NCBI GenBank assembly: GCA_964488475.1 | Contig: CAZAUK010000016.1 | Coordinates: 73 to 64,072 of the forward strand | DNA: 64,000 nt | Direction: 5' to 3' | Origin: an uncultured bacterium | Lineage (GTDB): Bacteria; Krumholzibacteriota; Krumholzibacteriia; Krumholzibacteriales; WJIX01 | Shown here: one piece after another, positions 6,274 through 34,184 of the stretch | Numbering within the stretch: the first letter of the stretch is position 1 | How the letters are laid out: each line of letters opens with the position of its first letter | Notes under the pieces: generated by a model | The model's input: only the letters and a program-made list of their open reading frames with translations | The model's database searches: none | Told to the model about the DNA's origin: nothing | Position numbers and translations under genes: made by a program

Positions 6274-6355
6274 CCCGTGCCCTACCGGCAATCATGGACA
6301 GGTGCTCACCGGTGAAGAAACTCAGGTCTTCCATGGGCAGATCGATTCCCAGAGA

Positions 6356-6856
6356 TCACCAGCTCTCACGATGGTCCCTGGACTCTTCGTACTGGGTCCT
6401 GGGTTCCTTGGTCTCGGCCGGGTGGCCCAGCGCTATCAGGCTCAGAATTCCGATTTCCTGAGGGATTCCCAGAACTTCCCTTATCGCCGCGACCCTTTCC
6501 TCCCTTGGGTGGCATCCCAGCCAGCATGTCCCCAACCCCAGCCCTGCCGCCGCCACCAGGATATTTTCGGTCACCGCGCTGCAGTCCTGGACCCAGTAAT
6601 CCGGCGATATGCCTGTATCTCCGCAAACAGCGATGGCCGCGGTGGCTTCAAAAAGCATCTTTCCGTAAGGGTGAGCCTCGGCCAGCCGGTCCAGCATCTT
6701 TCGCCCGGTGACCGTAACCAGGTGCCAGGGTTTGCGGTTTCTGCTTGACGGAGCTGCCATGCCGGCCTCTATTATTCTTTTGAGAGTTTTCTCTTCCACC
6801 GGCTTGCCGGCGTATTTTCTAATGCTTCGTCTTGCGAAAATAATATCAATCGACAA
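6356..6856 (-). CDS. Nitroreductase family protein
   Basis: RRSIRKY, APSSRNRKPWH, DCSAVTENILVAAAGLGLGTCWLG; probable TTG start at 6856 behind GGAGG (ORF track starts at 6913). Confidence 0.88.
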   Translation of the reverse strand: MSIDIIFARRSIRKYAGKPVEEKTLKRIIEAGMAAPSSRNRKPWHLVTVTGRKMLDRLAEAHPYGKMLFEATAAIAVCGDTGISPDYWVQDCSAVTENILVAAAGLGLGTCWLGCHPREERVAAIREVLGIPQEIGILSLIALGHPAETKEPRTQYEESRDHRESW

Positions 6857-6909
6857 CTTTTCGACCTCCTTTTTCCCAGACAATGATCTGCGGTCAGCCG
6901 CAGTTTGAT

Positions 6910-7725
6910 TCAACCTTCTATCCGGCGCTGCCTGGAAGCTTCATACAGCATTACCGCTCCAGCTACCGAGACATTGAGCGAATCGGCCCATCCCCGCATA
7001 GGAATCCTGGTCATGACATCCGCCGCATCGAACCACTCGCCCCCCAGCCCAGAATCTTCGCTTCCTACCACTACCGCGGCGGGAAGGGTATAATCGATAT
7101 CGGTGTAAAGTCCGGATCCCTCGGGGGAGGTCACTATGATTTTGATTCCTTTTCTGCTGAGCCATCTTATGGCTTCCGGAGCTTCAGCCAGAGCCGAGGA
7201 TACGGTAAAGACAGTTCCCAGACTGGCCCTGATCAGGTTCGGATTGAACAGATCGGTTTTGACTCCGCTGGCGATGACTCCGCTGGCCCCCGCCGCGTCG
7301 ACCGTTCTGAAGAGAGCTCCTATGTTGCCCGGTTTTTCAGCGCCGTCTATTACCAAATAGAGGGGGTTTTCCGGTACAACCATGTTTTCCAGCGACCGCT
7401 TGGGTTTTTCGGCAAGTGCGACCACTCCTCCGGTTGTGGACCGGTACGCTATTTTTTCAAAGACAGCCCTGGATATGGATACGGTTCCTCCTTCCGGCTT
7501 AACTGCCGGTTCGGAAAGAAGGTCCTGAATGCCCGGCCCCGCTATGGCCGGGCAGTAGTAGATCTCACGAAGAGAGGCGCCTGATCTCAGGGCAGCTCTT
7601 ATTTCCCTGATTCCCTCGATGGCTATCAGGCCGCTTCTTTCCCTTTCCCGTTTTTTTCTCAAATGGATGAGAAATTTTACCGATGGATTTTTGACGCTGG
7701 TTATGTGAGGGCGGCTTCTAGTCAT
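6910..7725 (-). CDS. TrmH/SpoU-family RNA 2'-O-methyltransferase
   Basis: PGNIGALFRT, VGSEDSG, RIPMRG and SLNVSVA SPOUT motifs. Confidence 0.92.
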   Translation of the reverse strand: MTRSRPHITSVKNPSVKFLIHLRKKRERERSGLIAIEGIREIRAALRSGASLREIYYCPAIAGPGIQDLLSEPAVKPEGGTVSISRAVFEKIAYRSTTGGVVALAEKPKRSLENMVVPENPLYLVIDGAEKPGNIGALFRTVDAAGASGVIASGVKTDLFNPNLIRASLGTVFTVSSALAEAPEAIRWLSRKGIKIIVTSPEGSGLYTDIDYTLPAAVVVGSEDSGLGGEWFDAADVMTRIPMRGWADSLNVSVAGAVMLYEASRQRRIEG

Positions 7726-8450
7726 TGTGGGCCCTGGGCGTCGATTTCTTCCAGAGTTTCCAGCAAAAGAGAGTCTAGTTTGCTGTAAGCTTTTTCGTTT
7801 ATGTGAAGACCGTCTTTCCGGGCGAAGCTGCTTCTGAGGTAACGGTCTTCAGGCCCCGTTCTCAAAGCGGCTTCCAGATCCATTACCGGGATACCTTCAC
7901 TGGAGGCGTACTTTAGCAGCCAGTCGTTGTATTCGATTATTCCCTGAAAGGTGCCGCCTGGCCATCTTATCTTGAACCTGAGAAGGCTGAGCAGAAATAC
8001 TCTTAAGGGAAAACTTTTTACCACGGGTACGGTAGTCGCCAGGACCACGGTAACCCCTTTTTCCCGGCACATGCCGGCCCACCGCTTTACGTACTCTTTG
8101 TACCTCGGCATATCCCCGGGAAATGAGGAAGCGCATTCCTTGATAATAATGATGTCCGGCCTGGTCTTTTCCGCGCTCAGTATCTCTCTCAGCGCATCGG
8201 TCTTATCGAAATTATAAACAGCGCGCGATTCAAATCGGTAGCCGGTGATCGGAGTTCTGCCGGGAAGGCCGGATAGATTCCAGTCCCTGCCAATGGAAGC
8301 TCCGATAAGAACGACTCTTTTAGCCTTGTTTTCGTTCTCTTTCTTCATTTCCGTATTTCCGGCCCGCACGAGTGAACAGCCCAGGATCGAAATGGCCGCC
8401 AGAATCAGCAGCTTCTTAATAATATTTTCTCTGGCCGGCCGGTTTCTCAT
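7722..8450 (-). CDS. Secreted SGNH/GDSL hydrolase family protein
   Basis: Signal peptide; block I LIGAS; catalytic DGLH near the C-terminus; 4-nt overlaps with both neighbours. Confidence 0.75.
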   Translation of the reverse strand: MRNRPARENIIKKLLILAAISILGCSLVRAGNTEMKKENENKAKRVVLIGASIGRDWNLSGLPGRTPITGYRFESRAVYNFDKTDALREILSAEKTRPDIIIIKECASSFPGDMPRYKEYVKRWAGMCREKGVTVVLATTVPVVKSFPLRVFLLSLLRFKIRWPGGTFQGIIEYNDWLLKYASSEGIPVMDLEAALRTGPEDRYLRSSFARKDGLHINEKAYSKLDSLLLETLEEIDAQGPQ

Positions 8451-9940
8451 ATCGGTATCCTGAACTGTTTTCTCTCTCTTCGGTCGAGTACGATGAACGT
8501 GTTCAGTATAATGAATACGATCGACGTCAATATACCAAGGATAAACAGTCTTTTATAGCTGTTCAAGATAAAACCCCTTATCACCAGCCAGCTTCCCAGG
8601 TGAATCAGGCAGCCCAGCAGAAAAGTGCCCAGTACGACTTTCACGTATTTAAGAAGCTCCATATTTATGACCCTGTTGGTGTAGGCCGGAATCACGAACA
8701 GGTTTGTTATCATGATGGGAATAGTTGTCCCCATAGCGACTCCCAGGATTCCGTATCTTCTCACCAGCAGAAGACTCAGGGCCAGGTTCGCCACCCCCTC
8801 CAGAGTTACGGTTATCGCGTACATCTTATGCCTGGAAAGACCGAAAAGCACCGTCTTGGATGTGATTTGTATCGTGTTGAAAAGCACCCCGATGGTAAGG
8901 AGCGCCAGAACGCTGTAAGAATCTCCATACTGGGGCCCCATCCACCTCAGGATAAAAGCCTTTCCGTATATGAGCAGGGACCCGCCCACGAATACCGATG
9001 CGATTGTGTTCAGCTTGGAGATGAATATATAATTCTTTCTTATGTTATCGTAATCCTTTATTCCCTCCATTCTGCTGAATACGGGCATCACCAGCGCTAT
9101 GGCGTTGGTTATCAGCAGAACGTAGTACTTGGTTATTCGGGCGCCAATATTATAGTGAGTCACCATTCCCAGCCCGATAAAAGCGGTGATGACAAAAGCA
9201 TCCAGGTGAAACTGGAGCCGGTCGCCCACGGTGGCTATGAAACTGTAGACGCTGTAACCCAGAAGCTCCCTGACCCTGTTCTTTCTGAAGTAGCTAAGAC
9301 CGACCACCAGCTCCGGATAGTTCTTAAGGGCGTAGAAGATAAAGACTCCGCACTGGGTGGTCTCCACCGCGAATGATATTAAAGCCAGAGCGATTATACC
9401 GTGCCCCCGGCTCAGGAAGAATACGATCAGGCCCGTTCTTATCAGGGCCTTGATAAGTTCTATTATGTTGACAACGTCGTACCGGATATGGGCGTAGAGG
9501 AAGCCGGTGAAAGCCCTGACCGGAAAAGAGATGGCCATAGTGACGGCTATGACCATGGTCACGATCCTGAAGATCCTTACGTCAGAGGTTTTATCCATGA
9601 AATGGGGGGTGAGCCAGACAATGACCAGGGCCGCGATTACAGTCAGAAGGGCGGCCACGAAGAAAAGGGCCAGGCAGGTGTTGAAGACTGCGTTGGCTTC
9701 TTCCCGGTCTTCTTTGCCCAGAGCTCTTGAAATGAATCTCTCGTTCGCTCTTGAGAGGCCCAGATCGAGAAGCCCGTAGTATCCCACGAACGCCGCGGCC
9801 AGCACCCACAGGCCGTACCACCTGTCTCCCAGGCTTCCGATTACGAAAGGCATAAGGAAAAAGGTGATGATTACGTTGCAGACGGGTATGAGCACCCTGA
9901 CAAATGATCCCTGAATCAATCTTCTGGCAAGAGTAGCCAT
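8447..9940 (-). CDS. Wzx-like oligosaccharide flippase (MOP superfamily)
   Basis: 497 aa with about 12-14 hydrophobic segments; LG...YGLWVLA, LLDLGL and RYGILGVAMGT patterns; located in the glycan locus. Confidence 0.88.
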   Translation of the reverse strand: MATLARRLIQGSFVRVLIPVCNVIITFFLMPFVIGSLGDRWYGLWVLAAAFVGYYGLLDLGLSRANERFISRALGKEDREEANAVFNTCLALFFVAALLTVIAALVIVWLTPHFMDKTSDVRIFRIVTMVIAVTMAISFPVRAFTGFLYAHIRYDVVNIIELIKALIRTGLIVFFLSRGHGIIALALISFAVETTQCGVFIFYALKNYPELVVGLSYFRKNRVRELLGYSVYSFIATVGDRLQFHLDAFVITAFIGLGMVTHYNIGARITKYYVLLITNAIALVMPVFSRMEGIKDYDNIRKNYIFISKLNTIASVFVGGSLLIYGKAFILRWMGPQYGDSYSVLALLTIGVLFNTIQITSKTVLFGLSRHKMYAITVTLEGVANLALSLLLVRRYGILGVAMGTTIPIMITNLFVIPAYTNRVINMELLKYVKVVLGTFLLGCLIHLGSWLVIRGFILNSYKRLFILGILTSIVFIILNTFIVLDRRERKQFRIPI

Positions 9941-9982
9941 CTTGTATATAACCTCTGAGCGCCGGTATCGCCCTTGAATTGC

Positions 9983-10978
9983 TTATTCCAGGTCCAAGCG
10001 CTTTGCTACGGCCTCTATGATCTTCCCTTTTTCTTCCGCTTCAAGCCGCTCTATGGCCTCGTTGCGCTCCATGTACCCTTCCCTGACCAGCTTACCCAGT
10101 TCGAAGGCGTATGGATGAAAATTGAATTTGGCCCGGTGAATCTTGTTGGCGAAAGCGTTCAGAAGGCAGTTGGTCGAGTTAGGATCGGTATCGTCCGGTT
10201 TGCGCCAGCCCATTCTCTGGATTTCTTCCAGTATAAAGTCCTCGTCATATTCGAGAAAGGCCAGGGGGCTGACGTTGTAGGGGAATCTCTCCTTCATTTT
10301 GAAGTGTTCCTCTGTGAGAAAATAATTGTCAATGCCCGGTCCGGCAGCTTCAAGCATCGGTTCATAAAGAGCTTTCTGCATGGTGCGGATCATCGCCGGA
10401 TTATTCTTGAATATGGAAGCCTGTATTGGAGCCTGCCCGGGAGACCAGCCGTAGGTTATGAATGGTATCCCCATGTCGATGGCCAGTCGAAGAGCTATGT
10501 ACTTGACTATTCCCATACAGCTGGTGCAGATGGTGCTCGCCCTCTCCAGGGTTTTGGCGGAATACATGGTGGAAGAGGAGGCCCGCCTGAATATTTTTTT
10601 CATCACATCGAAGCGGGGTTTATACAGGATATGGTCCACCTCCAGGTTTTCGACCACCTTTCGAATATTGTCAATGGCGGCCGGTGATATGAATCCGTTG
10701 TCCATGGTGAACGCCAGTATTGAGACGTTGTATCTTTCTTTGATAACGGCCATGGTGTAGGTTGAATCCTTGCCTCCGCTGTAAGCCATAAGGCAGTCAT
10801 AATTTCCCGGCGAGCGGCGTTCTTCCAGAAGTTTTTCGAATTTCAGCCTGTACTTCCGCATCGATTCAGCCAGTTTTTTCTCCCCTCCGAAAGCCCTGCA
10901 GAAATTGCATACCCCGTTTTCATCGAAATCTATTCCGGGAAATGTCTCGGGAAGAACACAATTCGTACATCTTTTCAT
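9983..10978 (-). CDS. N-acetyl sugar amidotransferase-like PP-loop protein (WbuX/WbpG-like)
   Basis: N-terminal CxxC...CxxC (RCTNCVLP...CNFC), PP-loop YSGGKDS, later CxxC. Confidence 0.8.
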   Translation of the reverse strand: MKRCTNCVLPETFPGIDFDENGVCNFCRAFGGEKKLAESMRKYRLKFEKLLEERRSPGNYDCLMAYSGGKDSTYTMAVIKERYNVSILAFTMDNGFISPAAIDNIRKVVENLEVDHILYKPRFDVMKKIFRRASSSTMYSAKTLERASTICTSCMGIVKYIALRLAIDMGIPFITYGWSPGQAPIQASIFKNNPAMIRTMQKALYEPMLEAAGPGIDNYFLTEEHFKMKERFPYNVSPLAFLEYDEDFILEEIQRMGWRKPDDTDPNSTNCLLNAFANKIHRAKFNFHPYAFELGKLVREGYMERNEAIERLEAEEKGKIIEAVAKRLDLE

Positions 10979-12067: not shown

Positions 12068-13600
12068 TTATAGTCCCTTGGTGGTAATCTTGCCCGAAGA
12101 GGTCTTCGGCAGACTGTCCATTATGATTACCTGCTGGGGGACCATAAAATCTTCCAGGTGTTTTCTGGCGTGCGCCATGATTTTCTTTTCCGTCATGGAG
12201 GAAGATTTCTTCAGAACCACGAAGGCCTTTACCGCCTCTCCCAGAGTGGGGTCCGGCACACCCTTGACGGCGGCCTCTACCACGTCCGGATGAGCGTAGA
12301 GGGCTTTCTCCACCTCTTTCGGGCTTACCTTTTCCCCCCGGCTTTTGATTATATCATCTTTTCGGGATACAAAATACAGAAACCCTTCCTCATCCATTCT
12401 GAAAAGGTCGCCTGTGTAAAGCACTTTTTCCCAAGGGACTACTCCCGGTTTGAGCATTTTATCCGTCTCTGAGGGGAGTTCCCAGTAGCCTTTCATTACG
12501 TTTGAACCGCGAACCACCAGCTCGCCGGTCACTCCCGGTTCTATGATCCGCATTCCTTCTTCGTCTACCAGGAATACTTCCTCGTTCGGCATTCCCTTTC
12601 CCACAGATTCCGGCCTGCGGTCCAGCTCTTCCGGCGGAAGGTAGGAAACCCTTTTGCACTCGGTCAGACCGTACATTGAATATATCAGAGCGCCCGGAAA
12701 TATCTTCTGAAGGCCCCGAATGTGACTGACCGGAAGAGCCGCCGCGGTATTAGTGATATATCTGAGATGCTCAAAGTTTTCATCTTCGAGCTTCTTCAAC
12801 TGAAGTAGGATGGCGGAAATGGTGGGAACGATGGGGAATCCCGTTATCTTTTCCTCCTTCAGGGTATTAATTATTTCATAGGGATAGATAAAAGATTTCT
12901 TGAGGACCACCGTGCCTCCGAACTGAAAGGACATTATTATCTGATACAGGCCGTAATCGAAAGAGAGGGGAAGCACGTCCAGGATTATGTCGTCCTCTGT
13001 GTTTCCCAGATAGGTGGTTATGGATGTCGATGCGGAGACCATGTTCAGATGAGTCAGCATTACCCCTTTGGGATTTCCCGTGGTTCCTGAGGTGTATATC
13101 AGGGAGGCCAGGTCGATATCGATATTCCGGCGCTTCGGCGCTTGAGGGGGAGATCCACCCATAACCTCATCCCACTTTTTCATGGGAACGGGAAGGTCCG
13201 TTTTTATATCCTTTCCCACCGTGATGAGGGCTTTCAGATAATTCGATTCCGAGGCCGCCTTTAGAGCCGCTTCTCTTCTTCTGTAGTCGATGATGAGCGC
13301 AGTGGCCCGGCAGTTATTAAATATGTAGGCTAGCTTTTCACTTTTGGTGGTAGGGTTTATAACGACGAACACCGCGTCCGCCTTGAGGATTCCAAAAATG
13401 CTGATCACCGTCTCGGGAGAGTTGTCCAGAAGGATGGCCACCCGTTCTCCGCGATCCACTCCCAGCTCTGACAGTGAGTGGGCCAGACGGTCAGCGCTGC
13501 CATCCACTTCCCGGTAGGTGAGCCTGCGGTCACCGTCAATAAGGGCTGTTTTTCCGGCAAGCCTTGCCGCCGAATTCTCGAGAAATTCCTGAACCAGCAT
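12068..13600 (-). CDS. AMP-binding adenylation enzyme (acyl/aminoacyl-ACP ligase), similar to exosortase-locus ligases
   Basis: YTSGTTGNPKG, LSFDYG, YGLTE, YTGD...SRKDD and PKTSSGK motifs; start ATG 13600 (MLVQEFLE) behind GGGGAG. Confidence 0.88.
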   Translation of the reverse strand: MLVQEFLENSAARLAGKTALIDGDRRLTYREVDGSADRLAHSLSELGVDRGERVAILLDNSPETVISIFGILKADAVFVVINPTTKSEKLAYIFNNCRATALIIDYRRREAALKAASESNYLKALITVGKDIKTDLPVPMKKWDEVMGGSPPQAPKRRNIDIDLASLIYTSGTTGNPKGVMLTHLNMVSASTSITTYLGNTEDDIILDVLPLSFDYGLYQIIMSFQFGGTVVLKKSFIYPYEIINTLKEEKITGFPIVPTISAILLQLKKLEDENFEHLRYITNTAAALPVSHIRGLQKIFPGALIYSMYGLTECKRVSYLPPEELDRRPESVGKGMPNEEVFLVDEEGMRIIEPGVTGELVVRGSNVMKGYWELPSETDKMLKPGVVPWEKVLYTGDLFRMDEEGFLYFVSRKDDIIKSRGEKVSPKEVEKALYAHPDVVEAAVKGVPDPTLGEAVKAFVVLKKSSSMTEKKIMAHARKHLEDFMVPQQVIIMDSLPKTSSGKITTKGL

Positions 13601-13713
13601 CTTAATCCTTTTTGTCTCCCCTCGGCATTGCGGGTTCCGGCGGGTCCTCAAACCGCGGTTTTCCGCGCGCCGGCGGTCCATCAAATTACGGCATCCCGCA
13701 CGCCAGCGGCTCC

Positions 13714-13962
13714 TCAGCCCGATGCTTTCCTGTTTATGTATTCGGTCAGCTTGTTAACGGAATCGAAATTGTCGGGCACCAGTTCCTCGTCCGCCACTTC
13801 GAATTCGAACTCCTCCTCGATGTAAGAGACCAGCTCAAGGATCCCTGTTGAGTCTATTATTCCGTTTTCCATGAAGGAATCGTCGTCGGAGATCTTCTCG
13901 TCTTCCGAGTCGAGAAGGACGTTATCCTCCAGAAAAGCGTATATCTTCGCCTTTATTTCCAT
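13714..13962 (-). CDS. Acyl/aminoacyl carrier protein
   Basis: 82 aa, acidic; phosphopantetheine site GIIDSTGILELV; GGAGG RBS. Confidence 0.92.
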   Translation of the reverse strand: MEIKAKIYAFLEDNVLLDSEDEKISDDDSFMENGIIDSTGILELVSYIEEEFEFEVADEELVPDNFDSVNKLTEYINRKASG

Positions 13963-24822: not shown

Positions 24823-25935
24823 TTATTCAAATGAATAGCCGTCCCCGCTGAAGTGGGAGAGTTGCCAGTCCTCCAGGCCGCTGTTTTCGGTATTCAGGTT
24901 CCAGGAGTCGGGGAAGGTGAAGGTAAATGACATACCCTTTCCTATATTTATCATACCCATTCTGCCTGCAGCCGAGCTGAGGCCGGGGTGTGAGGAGACG
25001 ATATCAAGCACCTCCGCGTCGCTTTTCATGAAAGAATCAAATACCTCTCTAACGAGCAGCTTAGGTGAGAGAGGATTCTGGCTGAAGAAACCATAGTCCA
25101 TCAGGCTCATCATCCTGAATCCTGAGTAGCCGCCCAAGGGCTGGGTGAGTACCCTGTTTTTCAGTATGAAATAGGCGGCGGGGCGGTTTTCCTTCTTGTC
25201 TTCCATTATGAAAAATTGACTGTTTCCCGCCCTGCTGAGTTTGAAGGCGAGCTTGGCCCCGCTGTCATTAAAGCGGAATCTCGAGCCATGATGGATATTC
25301 AGACCCTCCATGGTCGATTCCACTTCAGCCTTATCGATCCTGTGCCGGCTAAGATCCTTATTTCTCCCCGGCCCCAGGCTGGAAAGTATTGACACCAATG
25401 CTCTGGGAAAGGGTCTGAAAAGCGTATCGGCAAACTTTATCACCCCGCTGCAGTCTATGTACTTTCTCAGGAGAGGAGCACATGATCTGAGAAAAACAAA
25501 CCGATCGGCGTAACCCATGAATGAATATCCCAGTTTCCGGTAGATATGAACCGATACCGGCGTGGAAAAGACCATGCCGGATCCGATACCTTTTCCGTGA
25601 AGCACTCTCACCATGTTATCTATGAGTTTCGTTCCCAGTCCCTTGCCCCGGTATTCGGGGACCGTGAAGAATCCGCCCCCCCACGACCAGGGGTGTTTTC
25701 CCCGGTCGGTTATGAGAACGTCAGGTATCGCGAACCGGTTGCAGACCACCCTGTCCTCATGAGCGATATAGAAGAAGAAGGGAAATTCTTCATAGATGTC
25801 GGGATTTCCCCTGAAAGGCTCGAATTCAGTAAAGTCGCCGTCTTCAGTGACAAAGGAACGGTAAACCGCCGGATGGGTTTCAGCTGCCTTATCGATCTCG
25901 CCGAATGTTACAAAACCGAATTTGAAATCTTCCAT
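24823..25935 (-). CDS. GNAT-family N-acetyltransferase-like protein
   Basis: Acyl-CoA binding motif FTVPEYRGKGLGTKL; YRKLGY. Confidence 0.75.
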   Translation of the reverse strand: MEDFKFGFVTFGEIDKAAETHPAVYRSFVTEDGDFTEFEPFRGNPDIYEEFPFFFYIAHEDRVVCNRFAIPDVLITDRGKHPWSWGGGFFTVPEYRGKGLGTKLIDNMVRVLHGKGIGSGMVFSTPVSVHIYRKLGYSFMGYADRFVFLRSCAPLLRKYIDCSGVIKFADTLFRPFPRALVSILSSLGPGRNKDLSRHRIDKAEVESTMEGLNIHHGSRFRFNDSGAKLAFKLSRAGNSQFFIMEDKKENRPAAYFILKNRVLTQPLGGYSGFRMMSLMDYGFFSQNPLSPKLLVREVFDSFMKSDAEVLDIVSSHPGLSSAAGRMGMINIGKGMSFTFTFPDSWNLNTENSGLEDWQLSHFSGDGYSFE

Positions 25936-25953
25936 ATTTGATTCCCCGTACGT

Positions 25954-26592
25954 TCAGAGGTGATTTATTGCGTTAAAAAGATCGTAACCCTTATTCTTCA
26001 GGGGAGGAAGCACTATCTCGAGAACTTCCGGGATCTTGGGATTGTTATCATGGAGAAGGACGATGTCGCCGCCCTTTATGCGCTCGAGAAGCTTCCCGGC
26101 GATCTCTGCCGGCTCACTATCCCTGTTGAGGGTCCATTCGTGGCCTTCAGCGGACCAGAGCACGGTGGTAAGACCGCTGGAAAATGCCGCGGAAATAGAC
26201 GCGGGTCCGACCCAGCCCATCGGCGGGCGGTAGTACCTGGGCTTGTACCCGGTAATTTCCGTGATGATTTTTTGGCACATGCCGATATCTTCCCTGTGCC
26301 GTTTGAAGTTCCTGCGCTTCTCCTTAGAGTGATAAAAAGAATGGTTGCCGATGATATGGCCGTCTTCTGTTATCTTTTCGAGAAGGCGCGGATTTTTCCG
26401 TGCGAACCGGCCGACAATGAAAAATATCGCCCTGATCCGGTTAGCTTTTAAGATTTCCAGGATTCGGGGGGTGAATCTTTCGCTGGGCCCGTCGTCGAAG
26501 GTCAAGAGGAGTGAGGTCGAACCATTCGCTTCAAGCCTGCTGGCGAGGAGGCGGTTTGGCATGGCCGCTTTTATCGATTCCTTGAAGTTCAA
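25954..26592 (-). CDS. Polysaccharide deacetylase (NodB/CE4)
   Basis: LTFDDGP, GNHSFYH, YRPPMG, IVLLHD motifs. Confidence 0.9.
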   Translation of the reverse strand: MNFKESIKAAMPNRLLASRLEANGSTSLLLTFDDGPSERFTPRILEILKANRIRAIFFIVGRFARKNPRLLEKITEDGHIIGNHSFYHSKEKRRNFKRHREDIGMCQKIITEITGYKPRYYRPPMGWVGPASISAAFSSGLTTVLWSAEGHEWTLNRDSEPAEIAGKLLERIKGGDIVLLHDNNPKIPEVLEIVLPPLKNKGYDLFNAINHL

Positions 26593-26631
26593 GTCTATGA
26601 CCTCAGAGCAACCGGCCGGATATTAAAGGGA

Positions 26632-28317
26632 TCACAGCGAATCTTCCAGCTTTATATCCAGGCCGGGAGCATTAAAGTAATCGTCGAAATCGCCGCTCGT
26701 TATCAACCTGGTAAACAGATGAATATATACCAGCTGGAGCATGAATATATGATAGGTGACCGGATCTTCTTTCAGAGTGCTGATCTGGGCGGGAGTAAGC
26801 AGCTCCAGGGCGGTGTTCGAATCAAGGACCCGCATCAGAACATTCTTCTTGAACCGGAAAAGCCCCGCGGTGTCTGATACGATATCGCTCATTTCAATTT
26901 TATCGGCTTTTTCTCTACCCAGCATCTCCCTTACTTTTCTGTTGTGTAGTTCCTTGTGAAGATTCCTGTTCCTCAGAGCAAGAGCAGCGCTGATAGTCTG
27001 CCTGTTGACGAAGGGATATATTCCCTGAAGTCCGAAACTGTTAAGCAGGATGTCGTGCATCTTGAGAAGAAGATCGAAGGTGGAGTTGTACTTTACCCGG
27101 CGGGCGCTGCCCATAAATTGCCTGGTCAGGAGGTCGTAGGGTGTCTTCCGGCCGGTCAGGAGGCTGTAATATATCCGGCCCGGCAATCCCCTCTTGAGAT
27201 AGTTAATAAGCGCCGATCTGGTATTGTCTATTTTTCTGAAAAAGACGCTGTTCCTTTCCTGGGTTATTATCTCATTCGCTCCCGCTCCGAAAAGAGCTGT
27301 TTTCTTGCCGGTATTCCGCAGTAGATTGCAGATGCGGTACCGCAGGAATATTCCCCCTTCGAAAAGGTAGCTCTCGTAGCGCCAGACGATATCGGGCAGG
27401 TTGTCGATCGCTTCTTCGCTCATGTCGGCGGTGTGAAGCTCCACCCCGTCGTAATTTTTCAGAATGCTTTTTACCCTGGGAACCTCGTTGAATCCTTCCC
27501 CGCCGTTCACAGTGGCCGCGACCAGCGGCTTATCGGTGATTCTTTGCAGAAGATGCAGTATTAGATTCGAGTCGAATCCTCCCGAGAGAGACACGGCGGG
27601 AGGGGAATCGGTGAGGGTGGAATTGACCTCTGCCATGTTATTGCTGATATAATCTATCCAGTTTTCCTCAGCCTCGCCGGCGCTGATGCGCTGTCCCTCT
27701 GCTATAAAGGGAGGAGCGCTGACGGTGCGCTCCTTTCCGTTTATCAGGAGGTATCTTTGGGGGACCAGCTTTTCTACTCCCTTGATCAGCGTCGATTCAT
27801 CCGGAATAAGATACCTTCTAAAGAGGAACCGGTGGGCGGCCGATACGTCAATATTCCTGGAGACTTTTGATTTTTTAAGAAGCAGTTTGAGGCTGGTGCT
27901 GAAAGTTATCCCTTCGCCGGTGGTGGCGTAATATACCGGAAGGAAAGAGCCGTGCTCGGGCTGCAGAACAAGACATCTGCGCTCGCTGGAGTCATATATG
28001 ACGATAACGTAGTGGCCTTCCAGCTCGTTCAGCAGTTTCAGGCCGGACGAACGGTAGAGCGCTTCAACGATTTCGGTGTCGGTGGAATTGTCCATAGATA
28101 TTCGTTTGGCGATTTCACCGATATTCGAAAGGTATCCCAGAACAGAACAGAGGATACCCGATTCACTATTATAGAACAGGGAGGAACGGTCATATCTTGA
28201 GTAACTCATCCTGGCAGCTTCGAAATCGAATCCAGCGTCTCGAAAACGGCTTTCCAGCGTGAGGCTCTTGTTATCCTCCCGGAGCTTCCAGTCAAATTTT
28301 CCAAGCAGGTAGTTCAT
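26632..28317 (-). CDS. Asparagine synthetase-like protein lacking the N-terminal catalytic Cys
   Basis: AsnB-like layout (LNELEGHY, PVYY, FSTSLK, TLIKGVEKL), PP-loop LSGGFDS, GAGANE; begins MNYLL, not MC. Confidence 0.7.
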   Translation of the reverse strand: MNYLLGKFDWKLREDNKSLTLESRFRDAGFDFEAARMSYSRYDRSSLFYNSESGILCSVLGYLSNIGEIAKRISMDNSTDTEIVEALYRSSGLKLLNELEGHYVIVIYDSSERRCLVLQPEHGSFLPVYYATTGEGITFSTSLKLLLKKSKVSRNIDVSAAHRFLFRRYLIPDESTLIKGVEKLVPQRYLLINGKERTVSAPPFIAEGQRISAGEAEENWIDYISNNMAEVNSTLTDSPPAVSLSGGFDSNLILHLLQRITDKPLVAATVNGGEGFNEVPRVKSILKNYDGVELHTADMSEEAIDNLPDIVWRYESYLFEGGIFLRYRICNLLRNTGKKTALFGAGANEIITQERNSVFFRKIDNTRSALINYLKRGLPGRIYYSLLTGRKTPYDLLTRQFMGSARRVKYNSTFDLLLKMHDILLNSFGLQGIYPFVNRQTISAALALRNRNLHKELHNRKVREMLGREKADKIEMSDIVSDTAGLFRFKKNVLMRVLDSNTALELLTPAQISTLKEDPVTYHIFMLQLVYIHLFTRLITSGDFDDYFNAPGLDIKLEDSL

Positions 28318-28445
28318 CTCGAATCCTCCAGTTCCGGTCCTCGCTGCCGGTTCGGCTATTCAAGGTTTTTAATTATGAAAGGGCTGTAAGCAGGTTACGA
28401 CGAGCCTTCCCTTCCTATTGCCCGAAGCGGGCCGAGCCGAGCCCG

Positions 28446-29093
28446 TTAACCGCCTCTGCCGGTGAAGAAGTCCTCTGCGGCTTTGATTTCTTCTTCTTCA
28501 AAGACTTTTATGACGCTGGCGGGATTTCCTCCCACCACGCAATTGGCGGGGACGTCCCTGGTTACCACCGCTCCAGCCGCGATGACGGAATTACGGCCTA
28601 TGGTAACTCCTTTTAATATTATGGTGGCCAGCCCCGCCCAGACATTATCCTTGATGACCACCGGACTTGAATCCACGGGGGCTTCCGGGTCCCAACGGTC
28701 GGGAGCCACTCCGTGCTGATCGCTGTCTGTTATTCTGGTGTCCGCGAAGATGCACCATTTTCCGATCTCCACCCTCTCGCTGCAGCTCACTCTCAGGCCG
28801 TTCAGGTAGCTGTTGGTCCCCACAAGTATCTTGGCCCGCCTGGAGTAGGTGTATAGAGAGTTGATCTTGAACGGTCCTCCCTCTATCAGAATATTGTCTC
28901 CGAGCATGACTTCCCCGGGGCCTCGCACTCGAAGCCTTTGTCTTACCCTCAGATTACTACCGCAGGTAAAGCGTCTTCCGCTGAGAGCCATCACCGACAT
29001 GTAGCGCAGCGCGTTAAAACGCGAAAGAAGGTAATTAAATCCCTTTGAGGGGTTCCTGATGCCCTTATGAATTCTGGTTCCAAGCGAGTTCAT
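28446..29093 (-). CDS. Hexapeptide-repeat O-acyltransferase
   Basis: [39 protein letters not shown]. Confidence 0.88.
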
Positions 29094-29204: not shown

Positions 29205-30491
29205 TTATTTAAAAAAGAGGTGAAAAAACCTGGAAAAGATCACCATTATTTCATCCACCCTGAGAGCAAATAGAAGAATTCCCAGCGCGAAAAAGTTGAA
29301 CGTCCCGATGACCCCGACCGCCTGGCTGTAACTGGACCTGAAATAGCGCCTGATACTCCTGTTTTTGATCTTTCGTTTCTGTTTTCGGTATATGTTCAGA
29401 ACAGCCAGCCCCAGTCCCTGGTATAATCCCCAGAGCACGAAGTTGAAAGTATCGCCGTGCCACATCCCACATATGATGAAGGTCACGATTATGCTGACGT
29501 TCGAGAGGGTGATGGGTCTTTTTTTGAAGTACCGGTAGTTTCTGAGTTTCCTGGACAGCGGCCAGAAGATGTAATCGGTAAGCCAGGTGGTAAGGGACAT
29601 GTGCCAGTTGGCCCATAGTTGCTGGATGTTTCTTTTCATGAAAGGGTTGTTGAAGTTTTCGGGAAGTTCTATGCCCATTATTCGGGCGGACCCGATGGCC
29701 AGGTCGGAATAACCGGCGAAATCAAAATAAAAGTAGAGGGTATAGGCATACAGGCCGATCAGGACCTGGAAAGAGCTCATACTCGATATCGAACCGGATA
29801 TATTGGTTATAGCGTATGGAAAGACCAGAGTCGACAGAACGAATTTCTTGAACAGGCCGTGTACTATCCTTTCCAGCCCGGGTTTCAGGTCGGCTGAGAG
29901 GTCCTTCTCCTTGAACTCCATCTGAGCGCTGAAATGGTTGTAGCGGTTTATCGGCCCGCTGATGAAGGAAGGGAAGAAGAAGATGAAATTGAAAAAGTAC
30001 AGGATATTGATCTTTTCTATCTGCCGCTTGTAGCACTCGATCACGAAGTGCATCAGTTTGAATGAAGAATAGGAGATTCCGATTATGAATATGAAGTCGA
30101 TAGCCTCAAAATCCCTGCCCAGAAGGTCCTCAAAAAAGATTTCCTGCAGAAAATTGTATTTGAAGAAGGCCAGAATCAGAATCAGTGAACCGATTGAGCC
30201 GGAAGCGATAAGGAGTTTTCGTGACCCGGGTTTCTCAACAGAGGTTCTGTTCAGGTAGTAACCCATGAAATAAACGATGATGGTTATAACCAGCAGGAAG
30301 AGGAAAGAGAGTGGGGAAAACCTGGGAAGTGCCAGCAGAAAGAGGATGTTGAAAACGGCTATTGAAACATCCCTGATCCAGCGGCGAACCATCAGCAGCC
30401 TGAATATCACAACGGCCGCCAGGAAGAATATCCAGAACTTAATGTCGTAGTAGAAGTTGAATTTCAGTAATATAGTGTTAAAATAATCCAT
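29205..30491 (-). CDS. MBOAT O-acyltransferase (DltB/AlgI-like)
   Basis: GISYSSFK, FFPSFISGPI, YFDFAGYSDLAIG, ENFNNPF, WHMSLTTWL and the catalytic GMWHG. Confidence 0.92.
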   Translation of the reverse strand: MDYFNTILLKFNFYYDIKFWIFFLAAVVIFRLLMVRRWIRDVSIAVFNILFLLALPRFSPLSFLFLLVITIIVYFMGYYLNRTSVEKPGSRKLLIASGSIGSLILILAFFKYNFLQEIFFEDLLGRDFEAIDFIFIIGISYSSFKLMHFVIECYKRQIEKINILYFFNFIFFFPSFISGPINRYNHFSAQMEFKEKDLSADLKPGLERIVHGLFKKFVLSTLVFPYAITNISGSISSMSSFQVLIGLYAYTLYFYFDFAGYSDLAIGSARIMGIELPENFNNPFMKRNIQQLWANWHMSLTTWLTDYIFWPLSRKLRNYRYFKKRPITLSNVSIIVTFIICGMWHGDTFNFVLWGLYQGLGLAVLNIYRKQKRKIKNRSIRRYFRSSYSQAVGVIGTFNFFALGILLFALRVDEIMVIFSRFFHLFFK

Positions 30492-31584
30492 GCTTAAGGA
30501 ATACTTCCTCTATCAGATACTCTCCTACTAACCTGTTGGCGAATTCGTTGTAATGGGGATCCCGCTCGAAGCATAGCTTCTCCCCGAGGTCGTAATGTTT
30601 TTTAAGGACGGGCCTGGGATTGAGCAGCAGCTTGCCGTTTTTCCGAGCGTAGTCTATCATGAATTCCTCGTACAACGAGGGGTGATAACGGGAGGGGTCT
30701 GCCCCCAAATCGCCCAGGACACTCTTCAGCCTGAAACTGTCCACCAGTGGGACGAAAAGGTAGGCTGTCTTTATTCCCTTTCCCGCGCAGTACTCTTCGA
30801 ATTTATTGAGGTATCCCTCGGCTTCCCCAGCCTCGTCCAGGTTGTACAGCCGGCTCTCTTCGGAGTAAAGTTCGAAATGTTTGGGAAGCCTCTCGGATAT
30901 TTCGATCAGGTTCAATCTGGCGTTAAGTTTCCAGAAGACATCCCTGAGAAAATCATATATGGACAGGGTGTTCTTTATGATGAGCCTGATATAGGCTTTT
31001 TTCCATGAGCTTTTGTAAAACAGGTATCCGCTCTTGACCATGACCGGTTCAAGCGTGGAGTGAGTGGTGTCGTACCAGTTCAGGGAGGAAGAGCTGAGGC
31101 CGAGTATAACCAGTTCCGGTTTTCGCCGCTCGTCTTCGATGAATTCCCTGAGGATGGTCTCCTGCTCCATCAGAAAATGCCCCCCCACCGCGAAATTCAG
31201 AACCTCGATCCCCTTTCCGGCAGCGTAATCCGAAAATATTCCTACAAAGGATTCATCGAAATCGACTCCCTGCCCGAAAACCTGGGAAGCGCCCAGGAAA
31301 ACTATGTAAGGTTTTTTATTTATGTCGACATCGCCGGTCTCACTGTCCCTGGCGCCGATGGAATTGGTTATGGTTGTATAGGAATAGGTGGACCAGTCAT
31401 TGACCTTGACCAGGTTTTTCTTGAAGCGGTAGAAATCTCTGTATTGAACATATTCACCCCGGTATGTGTTGGAAGCGCTCCTTCCCGAAATTCTGAGACC
31501 GATTTCGAGGATGACCAGGCATAGAATCAAGGTGGCCGCCAGAACCGCTGCCTTTTCAAATATTATCTTTAAATTTATTTTCAA
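30478..31584 (-). CDS. Membrane-anchored SGNH-type acyl transfer protein (AlgJ/DltD-like)
   Basis: One N-terminal TM helix; block I FLGAS, NFAVGG, C-terminal DPHYN; overlaps the MBOAT start. Confidence 0.75.
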   Translation of the reverse strand: MKINLKIIFEKAAVLAATLILCLVILEIGLRISGRSASNTYRGEYVQYRDFYRFKKNLVKVNDWSTYSYTTITNSIGARDSETGDVDINKKPYIVFLGASQVFGQGVDFDESFVGIFSDYAAGKGIEVLNFAVGGHFLMEQETILREFIEDERRKPELVILGLSSSSLNWYDTTHSTLEPVMVKSGYLFYKSSWKKAYIRLIIKNTLSIYDFLRDVFWKLNARLNLIEISERLPKHFELYSEESRLYNLDEAGEAEGYLNKFEEYCAGKGIKTAYLFVPLVDSFRLKSVLGDLGADPSRYHPSLYEEFMIDYARKNGKLLLNPRPVLKKHYDLGEKLCFERDPHYNEFANRLVGEYLIEEVFLKHGLF

Positions 31585-31628
31585 AACAGCCCTCTTGGGT
31601 AAGCTCGAGGTTGACCACAGCCCCCCCG

Positions 31629-31775
31629 TTAGAAGTTAACATAGATAAATTCAGGTATTTCCGTTGTTCCGCTGGTATACCTGTGCATAAGGAAAATGAC
31701 GATCCAGAATATCTCAAACGCGATAATGATCAGCTTTCGGTTCCGCGCTACGATATCTTTGATTTTAACGAGCAT
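31629..31775 (-). CDS. 48-aa DltX-like single-TM peptide with a C-terminal FIYxxF motif (not in the ORF track)
   Basis: Translated by hand: MLVKIKDIVARNRKLIIIAFEIFWIVIFLMHRYTSGTTEIPEFIYVNF*; RBS GGAGAGGGAG; first gene before the SGNH and MBOAT genes. Confidence 0.8.
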   Translation of the reverse strand: MLVKIKDIVARNRKLIIIAFEIFWIVIFLMHRYTSGTTEIPEFIYVNF

Positions 31776-31869
31776 TTTTCACGCTCCCTCTCCTTTGTTC
31801 TTCATGCCCGCAAATTCCGGTCCAATTTTGTGTTCGGTTCAAATGAAAACTTTTTTGGTTGAGGCGCCC

Positions 31870-31885
31870 CGCAAATCATAGACCA
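31870..31885 (-). promoter_or_regulatory. Candidate sigma-54 promoter TGGTCTATGATTTGCG for the DltX-like/SGNH/MBOAT operon
   Basis: GG and TTGC at exact spacing, about 95 nt upstream of ATG 31775. Confidence 0.55.
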
Positions 31886-32073
31886 AAGGGCCGGCGCTTT
31901 TCAATTCAAAATTACGGTAATTAGTTAATTAGCTGCTTTTTAGATATTAATCAAGCGAAAAGGATATTTCAAGCAGGCCTTGATACCAATCGAGAGAGAG
32001 GTTTTTTTTGAAGTTATCTCTGAATAGGGGGTCCAACCGGCGGGGGAGCGCGGGGGCTGTTCCCCCCGGGTTC

Positions 32074-33015
32074 CTATTTACTGAAATGTATCGAGATCCT
32101 GTGGAAATCGCCCAGCTCCCCATAGGCTGAGAAGGAGTAATCTAGAGACATGTAATCTCTGACCTTGATTCCGCCTCCCATTGAAAAACCGCTGCCCGGA
32201 CGGTATTCCCTCCCGCTGTATCCCGCTCTCAGGCAGAGGATCCGGTGGGTGGTTATCTCCGCTCCCGCGTTGAAATAAACGTCCTCATACCTGGGTTTGA
32301 CCGCGTCGGCGGCAATGGTGACCGAAGTCTCGAAGCTTACCAGTCTAATCGACTGGCTGGCGCCCATCCTCATAGTCAGGGGGATCGGCTCCTCAAGTGA
32401 CCTGAACTTGACATCGGGGCCCATGTTCTGAACGGAGAATCCCACCGTTGTACCAAGCTGTTTCACGCTGTAACTCAGCCCGGCGTCTATGGCGACGCCT
32501 TCGGAGTGCCATTCCCCCAGGTTCTCCTTGAAATGCTTGAATCCCAGGCCCATCGATAAAAACGGTATCGGTGAAAATCTTGCTCCGACCAGCATCTGAT
32601 AGTTATCAGTCCTGAACTTTTCGCCGGTGGGGCCGAACTGGTCGTATCCCTCTATTTTCGGCCGGTAGAGATAGGTTATGCCCCCTCCAACGGCAAAATT
32701 CCCCGGAAGGGAGGCATAGGCGGAGAGATTGTCGTAACGGGTGTCGATTATCCATTCGGAATGGGATATACCTATTCCTCTTCCGCCGCCTTTGGCCAGA
32801 AGAGCCGGGTTGTAGAAGAGGGAAAACGGATTTTCCAGGGCTACGCCGGTTTCCCCCATGCCTATAGACCGGGGGCTTACCGGAAGGTTGAGATATGAAG
32901 CTCCGGCCGACCCGGGACCATCGCTCGATCCCAGACACGGAGCCGCCAGGAATAATGTTGCTGACACGGTTCCCAGAAGCACGCGCAAGAGGCTCATACC
33001 TGATGTTTTAGTCAT
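32074..33015 (-). CDS. PorV/PorQ-family outer-membrane beta-barrel
   Basis: Signal peptide; GASYLNLPVSPRSIGMGE, FYNPA, SHSEW; C-terminal GDFHRISIHF. Confidence 0.85.
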   Translation of the reverse strand: MTKTSGMSLLRVLLGTVSATLFLAAPCLGSSDGPGSAGASYLNLPVSPRSIGMGETGVALENPFSLFYNPALLAKGGGRGIGISHSEWIIDTRYDNLSAYASLPGNFAVGGGITYLYRPKIEGYDQFGPTGEKFRTDNYQMLVGARFSPIPFLSMGLGFKHFKENLGEWHSEGVAIDAGLSYSVKQLGTTVGFSVQNMGPDVKFRSLEEPIPLTMRMGASQSIRLVSFETSVTIAADAVKPRYEDVYFNAGAEITTHRILCLRAGYSGREYRPGSGFSMGGGIKVRDYMSLDYSFSAYGELGDFHRISIHFSK

Positions 33016-33030
33016 ATCCCCGTCCGTTTT

Positions 33031-33933
33031 CTAGTTAACTATCATTATAGGTCTTCTGGAAACGACCTTTTCCTTGGAGTCTTCAATCACTACGTAATAT
33101 ACGCCACTCATAACCGGGTTGCCGGTGCGGTTTGTTCCCTCCCAGTTCAGGGAAGTATCTGAAGAGGTGATCTTCTCACTGTAGATCTCTATACCGTTGG
33201 AGCCGTAAATCTTCACTGTCGAACCGGCGGGGAGGTTTTCCATGCTCATGCTTCCCTGTTCGGGGTGGAACGGAACAGGGTATATATTGAGCTGGGGAGT
33301 GGTCAGAGGCGCCGGACTTTCGCCTTCCACGGTAAAACTGTCCCTCGCGGAAATAGTAAGGTTATCGTATTCATCAAAAGCGACTGCCCTGGCGTAATAT
33401 TTGGCTTCTTCCAGGTCCTCCAGGCTGGCCGTGTGGTTCAAGGCGTATTCACTGGTGTTCCAGGTGCTCATGGAATCAAGAACGGCGTCCTGATCGAACT
33501 GCACGAAACCGGATGTTGAAACGGGGGTCTCCCAGCTCAGATCATAAGATCCGTTTCCCACCTTTGATATGGTGGTGATCTCACAGCTGTCCCTGAGAGC
33601 CTGATCGGCGTCCTGTGGAATAGTCATCGCTGAAACGGGGTTTGAAAAGCCGCTTCGCTGACCCGAGGAATTCTTCGCCACTATCCTGTAAAAGAATCTC
33701 AATCCCTCCGGTCTATCCTGATCGATGTAACTGAAAGTATCGTTGTCCACGCTGTCCAGGGCGGCGAAGCCGGAGTTCCGGTATATTGAGACGTAAATCA
33801 CGTAACCGGTTATATCCGGCTCCGGGTTCGGCTCCCAGTTGATCAGATAATCGGTGCTGCCCTGAGCCTGAAGACCGGTGGCGGCAGCCAAGAGAAGAAG
33901 AAAGCTGATTACTCTGATTGATGTTCTGGTCAT
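33031..33933 (-). CDS. Secreted fibronectin-III protein with a T9SS-type/FlgD-like C-terminal domain
   Basis: Signal peptide from ATG 33933; Fn3-like WEPNPEPDITGY; CTD-like LNIYPVPF...VKIY...WEG...SGVYYVVI. Confidence 0.75.
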   Translation of the reverse strand: MTRTSIRVISFLLLLAAATGLQAQGSTDYLINWEPNPEPDITGYVIYVSIYRNSGFAALDSVDNDTFSYIDQDRPEGLRFFYRIVAKNSSGQRSGFSNPVSAMTIPQDADQALRDSCEITTISKVGNGSYDLSWETPVSTSGFVQFDQDAVLDSMSTWNTSEYALNHTASLEDLEEAKYYARAVAFDEYDNLTISARDSFTVEGESPAPLTTPQLNIYPVPFHPEQGSMSMENLPAGSTVKIYGSNGIEIYSEKITSSDTSLNWEGTNRTGNPVMSGVYYVVIEDSKEKVVSRRPIMIVN

Positions 33934-34184
33934 TCCATTTGCTCCTTCTACTGCATCCAATTTTTACGAAAAAGAATTTTCCGTGAATTTGGATATGTTC
34001 ATATTAAAAAATCTTTCAAAAAGATTCGAGGGTAAAAATGTAAATTGCGAATTTATGTGTCTTTTTTGACTTTTTCGGCCTGTTTCTCATGATGGCTTTT
34101 GCTTCCCGGTCGATTCTCATCGAATCGATTTCTGTTTCAAGGGCCGGTTAAAATTTACCTAACGCTGCTGCGGTCTGGGAATCT

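Follow-up and report, generated by a model that had tools for sequence, protein, structure and literature searches.

The microprotein gene and its operon

We examine a very short gene in a 64,000-nucleotide (nt) stretch of DNA (the window) from an uncultured bacterium of the Krumholzibacteriota (assembly GCA_964488475.1, contig CAZAUK010000016.1). Positions 31775..31629 of the window, on the minus strand, hold an ATG-initiated reading frame of 48 codons, the product of which (MLVKIKDIVARNRKLIIIAFEIFWIVIFLMHRYTSGTTEIPEFIYVNF) is a predicted single-pass membrane microprotein. The frame is followed on the same strand by the genes of an SGNH-fold protein and of an MBOAT (membrane-bound O-acyltransferase), and we argue that the microprotein probably serves these two partners as a trans-acting acyl-tyrosine shuttle for exopolysaccharide acylation, by analogy with DltX of the Dlt pathway. 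The features on which the argument is built are the following.

31629..31775, minus strand: microprotein gene; 48-residue single-pass membrane protein ending FIYVNF-COOH, with Tyr45 as the proposed acyl acceptor
31784..31793, minus strand: Shine-Dalgarno-like GGAGaGGGAG, its 3' end 8 nt from the ATG; read from the sequence
31875..31904, minus strand: sigma-70-like promoter candidate TTGAAA-18-TATGAT; 10/12 match to the consensus
30478..31584, minus strand: SGNH-fold protein, 368 residues; N-terminal transmembrane (TM) anchor, helix 5-32; Ser100 (GAS), Gly135, Asp342 and His344 (DPH)
29205..30491, minus strand: DltB-like MBOAT, 428 residues; His297 (WHMSL) and His345 (GMWHG); no C-terminal FxYxxF

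An earlier note on this DNA, made from the letters alone, had claimed for positions 31629-31775 a 48-residue frame with a strong ribosome-binding site, one TM helix and a C-terminal EFIYVNF, placed first in one operon with the MBOAT gene, and each of these items is recovered here. The DNA 5' of the ATG reads caaaGGAGaGGGAGcgtgaaaaATG, where the last GGAG stops 8 nt before the start codon, and the 22 nt directly 5' of the ATG are caaaGGAGaGGGAGcgtgaaaa. Purine runs of the same Shine-Dalgarno-like kind also stand 5' of the orthologues in L001, L004 and L005 (L-numbers label the comparison loci that were fetched). The promoter candidate lies within the 298-nt intergenic region 5' of the microprotein gene, a region in which we find no Rfam leader or riboswitch; the whole window has no Rfam match of any kind. 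In the window the operon opens with the microprotein, a very short frame: its stop codon is followed after 44 nt by the TTG start of the SGNH gene (31584..30478), and the stop of that gene overlaps the ATG of the MBOAT gene by 14 nt.

The hydrophobic core of the microprotein covers residues 15-30 with a mean Kyte-Doolittle value of 2.97. The net charge is +4 over residues 1-14 and -1 over the 18-residue tail (31-48), and therefore, by the positive-inside rule, the orientation should be N-in/C-out. The sequence thus predicts an inner-membrane protein with a cytoplasmic N-terminus and a tail of about 18 residues outside.

Conservation of the microprotein

A word-indexed search gives five homologues of 46-49 residues, 58-88% identical to the window peptide and all ending PEF[IV]YVNF. 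A profile search of 1.84 billion cluster representatives extends the family to 70 proteins at E<=1e-3, all of them 33-82 residues and none long. Their endings are nearly uniform, with FVYVNF in 27, FIYVNF in 26, FVYANF in 8 and FIYANF in 3, so that 64 of the 70 follow F[IV]Y[VA]NF. An alignment of 58 sequences shows no substitution at F23, F43 or Y45 and a conservation of 90% or more at E21, W24, N47 and F48; the family consensus is ...RKLIILTFEIFWIVVFLL...IPQF[IV]YVNF, and the conserved motif within the membrane is TFE[IV]FWI (E21, F23, W24). Where family members have a database name at all, it is "hypothetical protein". Scans of the window peptide against Pfam and NCBIfam return nothing meaningful (the sole match is ArlX, E 0.17), and the family profile has no match among PDB sequences at E<=10.

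The question of whether such a short frame is a gene can be put to the codons. Between the window and L001 there are, over 40 codons, 15 synonymous and 5 non-synonymous differences, corresponding to proportions of 0.57 (pS) and 0.05 (pN). Over 16 comparisons with the window pS ranges from 0.57 to 1.0 and pN from 0.05 to 0.42, with pS far above pN in every one; synonymous differences among the homologues are near saturation while non-synonymous ones are few. Two plus-strand open reading frames (ORFs) lie antisense over the microprotein gene, at 31611-31862 (83 residues) and 31696-31881 (61 residues). The substitution pattern favors the minus-strand frame and therefore leaves the antisense frames without support.

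The ending can be examined in the same spirit. Among the stop-to-stop segments of at least 20 residues in the window, 1 of 1,786 ends in F.Y..F, and for the window and 95 loci together the count is 69 of 17,634, where about 0.55 would be expected from composition. These 69 comprise 36 members of this family, 19 MBOAT C-termini, 7 DUF5989 proteins, 4 other microproteins next to short MBOATs and 3 chance-like ends. Chance does not account for the motif. The earlier note had let its proposal stand or fall with conservation of the frame; with some 70 representatives, and pN far below pS, the frame is conserved. Judged by these patterns in the sequence, the microprotein gene is real, conserved and under purifying selection.

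The SGNH and MBOAT partners

The 368-residue SGNH protein of the window has no Pfam match of its own. It has 38 homologues, in which Ser100, Gly135, Asp342 and His344 are invariant (the Ser/Asp/His set in 32 sequences), and its nearest named relative, at 50% identity, comes from a Candidatus Eisenbacteria metagenome-assembled genome (MAG). An AlphaFold2 model made from the homologue alignment reaches a mean predicted local distance difference test (pLDDT) score of 90.7 and consists of helix 5-32 followed by an alpha/beta domain. A Foldseek search against the PDB places this model among the GDSL/SGNH esterases (TesA, Axe2, CgnD and others) with a probability of 1.0. Within the family, weak Pfam matches are seen to ALGX (10/32, best 1e-4) and Lipase_GDSL_2 (11/32), and the 32 members scanned have no match to Pfam DltD. 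According to the model, the protein is a membrane-anchored SGNH-fold partner with a predicted Ser/Asp/His set.

The MBOAT matches Pfam MBOAT at 5e-27. Its sole NCBIfam match is the DltB model TIGR04091, at 243 bits and so under the 375-bit cut-off, and its only sequence relatives in the PDB are the DltB structures (6bug at 6e-41, 8jem at 2e-40). The alignment with DltB leaves only about 15 residues uncovered at either C-terminus, and it pairs His345 with the WHG histidine of 6bug; both His297 and His345 are invariant in eight MBOATs of the clade. The protein ends ...SRFFHLFFK, and this motif-less end, together with the GMWHG sequence, had been read correctly in the earlier note. The AlphaFold2 single-sequence model of the MBOAT (pLDDT 47) is unusable.

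Genomic linkage of the three genes

We examine the linkage from two sides. For the SGNH side, GTDB genomes were scanned with the SGNH alignment and distant SGNH homologues were looked up, which gives loci from Aminicenantes, Syntrophales, a "delta proteobacterium" and unclassified MAGs. The microprotein is present in 16/16 loci (the window included) that have a full-length SGNH homologue and a usable flank; the other loci of this sample with the microprotein are L001, L002, L003, L008-L014 and L025-L028. For the MBOAT side, metagenomes were scanned with the aligned eight MBOATs of the clade, which gives 67 loci with 4-kb flanks. Here the microprotein lies in the flanks of 20/36 close MBOAT relatives, most often abutting or overlapping the MBOAT stop codon. 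Short ORFs of the kind that the earlier note proposed to look for near homologous MBOAT/SGNH pairs are thus linked to them in several phyla.

The gene order varies. Microprotein-SGNH-MBOAT is the order in the window, L001, L002 and L025-L028; L010 has SGNH-microprotein-MBOAT, and L011 and L012 have MBOAT-microprotein, with the SGNH gene further on. In L009, L013 and L014 the order is microprotein-SGNH and the MBOAT gene is 3-4 kb off on the opposite strand, and in L003 it is microprotein-MBOAT and the SGNH gene is divergent. Two loci carry scars of rearrangement. L010 has a degenerate second microprotein copy 5' of the SGNH gene (5854-5967, ending ...GIPQFIYTNF and read through into LILNKSIRL), and L003 has an SGNH C-terminal remnant between the microprotein and MBOAT genes (4211-4399), with the intact SGNH gene on the other strand. 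These scars show that the three genes stay together through reshuffling.

The SGNH genes of L013 (5956-7028 and 9224-10686, where the MBOAT gene is affected too) and L014 (5989-7090) are split over several frames. In such MAG contigs, indel errors of the assembly seem more likely than pseudogenes.

The microprotein is genetically linked to this MBOAT/SGNH clade.

Fused and split arrangements of the motif

The next question is where the motif lies when the MBOAT is of another kind. None of the 36 close MBOAT relatives (417-456 residues) ends in FxYxxF. The distant MBOATs, at 93-176 bits, behave differently: 17 of the 26 complete ones end in FxYxxF (FLYFRF, FMYGNF, FLYANF, FVYQGF and others), those that carry the motif being 454-523 residues long, and another 4/26 end in near-variants (FLYWNY, YVYFQF). 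Three short distant MBOATs of 384-403 residues are without the motif and adjoin a small TM ORF that has it, ending FIYGNF in L072 and FFYQGF in L074 and L085. For 2/26 (L068 and L087) neither the motif nor such an ORF is seen. The long distant MBOATs thus carry the motif at their own C-terminus, as the earlier note had said of AlgI/PatA-type MBOATs.

The fused and the split arrangements are complementary across these MBOATs. Such a pattern would result from a catalytic element for which supply in cis and supply in trans are both possible. The survey of 67 loci agrees, on independent data, with what is reported of the extra C-terminal helices (PMC12148441).

The neighborhoods of the short MBOATs are of some interest in their own right. 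In L074 (1851-6100) and L085 (14-4218) the order is an FkbH-like gene, the short MBOAT (383-386 residues), the FFYQGF microprotein and then a protein of about 350 residues without a Pfam match; in L072 (660-1972) the 47-residue protein ending FIYGNF overlaps the start of a 390-residue MBOAT. L060 (3776-6330, on a 2.4-Mb contig) has a divergent arrangement of an MBOAT, a 375-residue protein without a Pfam match and a 50-residue protein ending PFVYVRF, and this last microprotein is not recognized by the hidden Markov model of the family.

Proposed mechanism

In the Dlt pathway, by which Gram-positive bacteria D-alanylate their teichoic acids, DltB moves D-Ala from DltC to the invariant Tyr in the FXYXXF of the microprotein DltX, from which it passes to the serine of DltD, and PatA auto-acetylates the same Tyr in its fused motif (PMC12148441). 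By analogy, we would describe the present system as follows. A cytoplasmic thioester donor would enter the tunnel of the MBOAT, and His345 would move the acyl group onto Tyr45 of the microprotein at the outer face or leaflet of the membrane. Past the TM helix some 15 residues would form a flexible tail, which would then swing the acyl-Tyr ester to the SGNH active site (Ser100/Asp342/His344), and the SGNH enzyme would acylate the surface polysaccharide or exopolysaccharide that the surrounding cluster produces. From DltX/DltB/DltD and PatA/PatB we infer the chemistry at the Tyr, the direction in which the group travels and the polymer that accepts it. As to the donor, a carrier protein and an acyl-CoA such as acetyl-CoA appear to us about equally probable.

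Candidate donor module and polysaccharide context

A candidate source of the acyl group lies 15 kb from the MBOAT gene in the same cluster, with the following genes.

13714..13962, minus strand: acyl carrier protein (ACP), 82 residues, with an IDSTG phosphopantetheine site; assigned with phmmer against AcpP/DltC probes and with the NCBIfam ACP families
12068..13684, minus strand: AMP-forming ligase, 538 residues; Pfam AMP-binding 1e-92, TIGR03098 481 bits
11041..12006, minus strand: NadE-like ATP pyrophosphatase, 321 residues; NCBIfam PRK00876 392 bits

By analogy with DltC, the ACP is a candidate acyl donor, its link to the MBOAT being a putative one, and the ligase is a candidate loader of the ACP, analogous to DltA. 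The NadE-like enzyme might amidate the ACP-bound group. Twelve other split-type loci have a homologue of at least one module gene in their short flanks, a few kb at most from the three genes (L008, L031, L033, L035, L038, L040, L047, L050, L052, L057, L059 and L060). ACP homologues are near the three genes in L008, L033, L035, L040, L047, L050, L057 and L060, ligase homologues in L008, L038, L050, L052, L057 and L060, and NadE-like homologues are adjacent to the module in L031, L047, L050, L057, L059 and L075. Some of these share a transcription unit, examples being SGNH-MBOAT-microprotein-ligase in L038, MBOAT-microprotein-methyltransferase-NadE-ACP-ligase in L057, and ACP-ligase-WbuX-MBOAT-375-residue protein-microprotein in L060. 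The module is found at 4083-7209 in L050, 6953-9157 in L057, 657-3766 in L060 and 8287-9156 in L008, and it is sometimes accompanied by a WbuX-like amidotransferase. The recurrence of ligase, ACP and NadE-like neighbors suggests a supply line with a carrier protein, of the DltA/DltC kind. Our literature search found no paper tying exosortase loci, ACP and MBOAT together.

Four further genes follow the MBOAT gene on the same strand.

29093..28446, minus strand: hexapeptide acetyltransferase
28317..26632, minus strand: AsnB-like amidotransferase
26592..25954, minus strand: polysaccharide deacetylase
25935..24823, minus strand: GNAT/FemAB-like protein

These downstream genes (24823..29093) indicate a surface polysaccharide as the substrate. 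The surrounding 8-35 kb are a polysaccharide cluster with GT2/GT4 glycosyltransferases, Wzy_C, a Wzx-type flippase and a deacetylase, along with hexapeptide acetyltransferases and AsnB-like, WbuX-like and GNAT/FemAB-like genes.

Directly 5' of the operon, on the minus strand at 32074-33960, the window encodes a PorP/SprF-like membrane protein (type IX secretion) and a secreted fn3/FlgD_ig protein, which has a C-terminal sorting domain of the CHU_C/Por type. In L001, L002 and L025 this pair likewise comes before the three genes, which hints at a host of the FCB group and at a surface-associated role.

Weighing the shuttle against the alternatives

Several observations weigh against the shuttle reading or the pathway drawn around it. 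That the microprotein is translated is argued from its conservation only. It is not in the flanks of 16/36 close MBOAT relatives, most of which stand on short contigs or have the Aminicenantes-type layout, where the microprotein and SGNH genes are about 4 kb away. On the contigs of L034 (4990 nt) and L043 (2517 nt) the SGNH and MBOAT genes are divergent, and along their whole length we see no FxYxxF microprotein; these two are unexplained exceptions to the linkage, and the microprotein gene may lie elsewhere in those genomes. In L025-L028 the surrounding +-10 kb hold no ACP/ligase module. In L075 (1112-4786) a fused MBOAT of 488 residues, ending FYYMRF, is followed by ligase and NadE-like homologues, and therefore the putative supply line is not exclusive to split systems. 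Finally, the parallel with DltX may be convergent, because no sequence homology to DltX is detectable.

Could the microprotein be real and yet carry no acyl group? As a structural or regulatory subunit it might connect the TM helices of the MBOAT with the SGNH anchor, or serve as a gate of the MBOAT tunnel, and the MBOAT would hand its acyl group straight to the serine of the SGNH protein or to the polymer. The conserved TFE[IV]FWI, which points to a specific helix-helix packing, would suit such a part, as would the missing homology to DltX and the presence of MBOAT and SGNH genes without the microprotein on the L034 and L043 contigs. The most conserved part of the microprotein, however, is the terminal FxYxxF with its invariant Tyr, a hexapeptide that is identical or nearly so to the acetyl carrier in PatA and the D-Ala carrier in DltX (PMC12148441), and complementarity of fused and split forms is expected of a catalytic element and not of a mere scaffold. 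We consider a purely structural role unlikely.

A second alternative is that the frame is a leader peptide or upstream ORF that regulates the SGNH/MBOAT operon, or a chance ORF in the 5' untranslated region. That so short a frame stands at the head of the window's operon, and lies below the gene-calling cut-off, would agree with this. In other loci, however, it stands after the MBOAT gene or between the SGNH and MBOAT genes (L010, L011, L012, L031, L033, L038, L039, L047, L050 and others), what is conserved is the amino-acid sequence rather than the RNA (pN much below pS), a TM helix is present, and the region has no Rfam match. The variable gene order and the substitution pattern effectively refute the leader reading, to which we attach next to no probability.

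The precursor of a ribosomally synthesized and post-translationally modified peptide, on which AsnB-like (lasso-cyclase-like), GNAT or acetyltransferase enzymes encoded nearby would act, is just as improbable: the gene is small and near an AsnB-like gene with a weak lasso peptide cyclase match (NF033535, 9e-11), but that gene is 4-9 kb off or absent from the flanks in L025-L028 and L009-L014, the constant partners are the MBOAT and the SGNH protein, and a hydrophobic TM helix with a conserved C-terminal end is not a leader/core layout, so that we reject it for the inconsistent adjacency and the missing layout. We also reject a reading of the C-terminal aromatics as the beta-signal of an outer-membrane protein, since the microprotein has a single hydrophobic helix; the Y-x-F signal of outer-membrane proteins has a Tyr spacing unlike that of the microprotein's C-terminus.

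Wider implications

With the acyl-Tyr shuttle as the preferred reading, the data support a new, unannotated microprotein family that would provide an FxYxxF shuttle in trans outside Dlt. How the acyl-Tyr shuttle works was established only in 2023-2025, and the current account has a separate microprotein in Dlt and a fused motif in all other MBOAT/SGNH systems (PMC12148441). The present loci would add a third situation, namely a non-Dlt MBOAT/SGNH pair in exopolysaccharide clusters outside Firmicutes with a stand-alone shuttle of its own, unrelated in sequence. This would rescue a gene family that is unnamed or "hypothetical", would lend independent evolutionary support to the catalytic role of the hexapeptide, and points to unknown acyl decorations of environmental exopolysaccharides, possibly derived from a carrier protein, in hosts that mostly belong to uncultivated lineages. 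It also offers a rule for annotation: where an MBOAT is short and has no FxYxxF, a microprotein that ends in the motif and has about 50 residues should be sought.

A still wider reading can be offered tentatively, as a possibility that we would sooner doubt than adopt. Outside Firmicutes there would be a complete Dlt-like pathway of five roles that depends on a carrier protein, with the three genes as its membrane half, and FxYxxF microproteins would be a widespread, polyphyletic and for the most part unannotated class of trans-acting shuttles. The dedicated ACP would receive from the AMP-forming ligase an acyl or aminoacyl group of an unusual kind, perhaps tailored by the NadE-like enzyme; the short MBOAT would pass the group to the Tyr of the microprotein, and esterification of the exopolysaccharide would fall to the SGNH enzyme. 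If this is true, the shuttle class holds at least the present family, the FFYQGF family beside FkbH-like loaders and DUF5989 beside carbamoyltransferases, and every short, motif-less MBOAT is predicted to have an FxYxxF microprotein.

Comparison with known systems

We close by comparing the system with those already described. Microproteins of the DUF5989 family (PF19451) have about 50 residues, are likewise single-pass, end in FxYxxF (PF[IVA]Y[AST][ML]F) and, in the loci at hand, are encoded near large SGNH/ALGX-like proteins. They form a separate family, with an hhalign probability of 10.6% and 1/58 members of the present family matching the Pfam model (E 0.088), and unlike the present family their neighbor is a carbamoyltransferase, with no MBOAT seen within 12 kb. 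Examples are L015 (228-392, E 1e-24) and L017 (10513-10770, E 4e-12); others are in L016, L018, L019, L021 and L023. In L017 the DUF5989 gene overlaps the 3' end of the carbamoyltransferase gene (8181-10529), which itself comes after the gene of a 774-residue SGNH+ALGX-like protein (5695-8019), and in L015 a 385-residue SGNH-like protein is encoded about 1.5 kb 3' of the DUF5989 gene. DUF5989 microproteins may carry carbamoyl or acyl groups on the Tyr as a shuttle; our literature search found no paper that mentions DUF5989.

The Gram-negative O-acetylation systems PatA/PatB, AlgI/AlgJ/AlgX and the WssH type share the presumed task, an MBOAT and an SGNH protein that together modify an extracytoplasmic polysaccharide. 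FIYANF is the ending of PatA in N. gonorrhoeae, and PatB can use O-acetyl-FIYANF as its donor (PMC12148441). The hexapeptide is common to both systems, and three members of the microprotein family end in FIYANF as PatA does. The SGNH family here has weak ALGX Pfam matches. PatA/AlgI-type MBOATs have the motif on extra C-terminal helices that DltB is without, and the non-Dlt bacterial MBOAT/SGNH systems are stated to be without a DltX-like microprotein, with the motif fused (PMC12148441). Unlike PatA and AlgI, the MBOAT here is about 50 residues shorter and has no fused motif, the motif being supplied in trans.

With DltX the likeness is one of architecture. The DltX of B. thuringiensis has 48 residues, of which 12-33 are the TM helix, and its tail closes with FIYNEF (PMC5541007). 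The microprotein shares its length of 48 residues, a basic cytoplasmic N-terminus, one TM helix and an external tail of about 15-18 residues ending FxYxxF-COOH (FIYVNF here, FIYNEF in DltX); its gene, too, lies beside those of a short, motif-less, DltB-like MBOAT and a TM-anchored SGNH protein, often with an adenylating ligase and a carrier protein nearby as in Dlt. In sequence the two differ. Neither the window peptide nor any of the 58 members matches Pfam DltX (PF12459/DUF3687) at E<=10, and hhalign against eight Bacillus DltX sequences gives a probability of 1.2% with only the last 9 columns aligned, the DltX profile being a narrow one, since the DltX homologue search gave only close Bacillus relatives. 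The present family has its distinct TM motif TFE[IV]FWI and no similarity to DltX outside the hexapeptide. The hosts are Aminicenantes, Syntrophales and deltaproteobacterial MAGs (for the SGNH family also an Eisenbacteria MAG) and not Firmicutes, and the setting is an exopolysaccharide cluster (glycosyltransferases, Wzy, Wzx) and not teichoic acid. Unlike DltD, the SGNH partner is without a DltD Pfam match and has DxH spacing instead of DxxH; unlike DltA and DltC, the ligase has its best match to TIGR03098 (acyl-CoA-ligase-like) and the ACP falls under the DltC cut-offs.

The label "DltX-like" in the earlier note therefore stands for architecture and motif, while a sequence relation to PF12459 does not hold and the SGNH protein is weakly AlgX/GDSL-like rather than DltD-like. 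Since size, topology and motif are the same and a sequence match is missing, we file the microprotein as a functional analogue and not as a member of the DltX family, although it is possibly a very remote DltX homologue. Read from their sequences, the genes of the locus appear to hold Dlt-analogous roles and not to be dltXABCD orthologues. In a full-text literature search no description of a DltX-like protein outside Dlt came up, and the present comparison suggests that the design with a separate shuttle peptide, so far known only from Gram-positive Dlt systems, is also present in the polysaccharide clusters of several uncultivated phyla.

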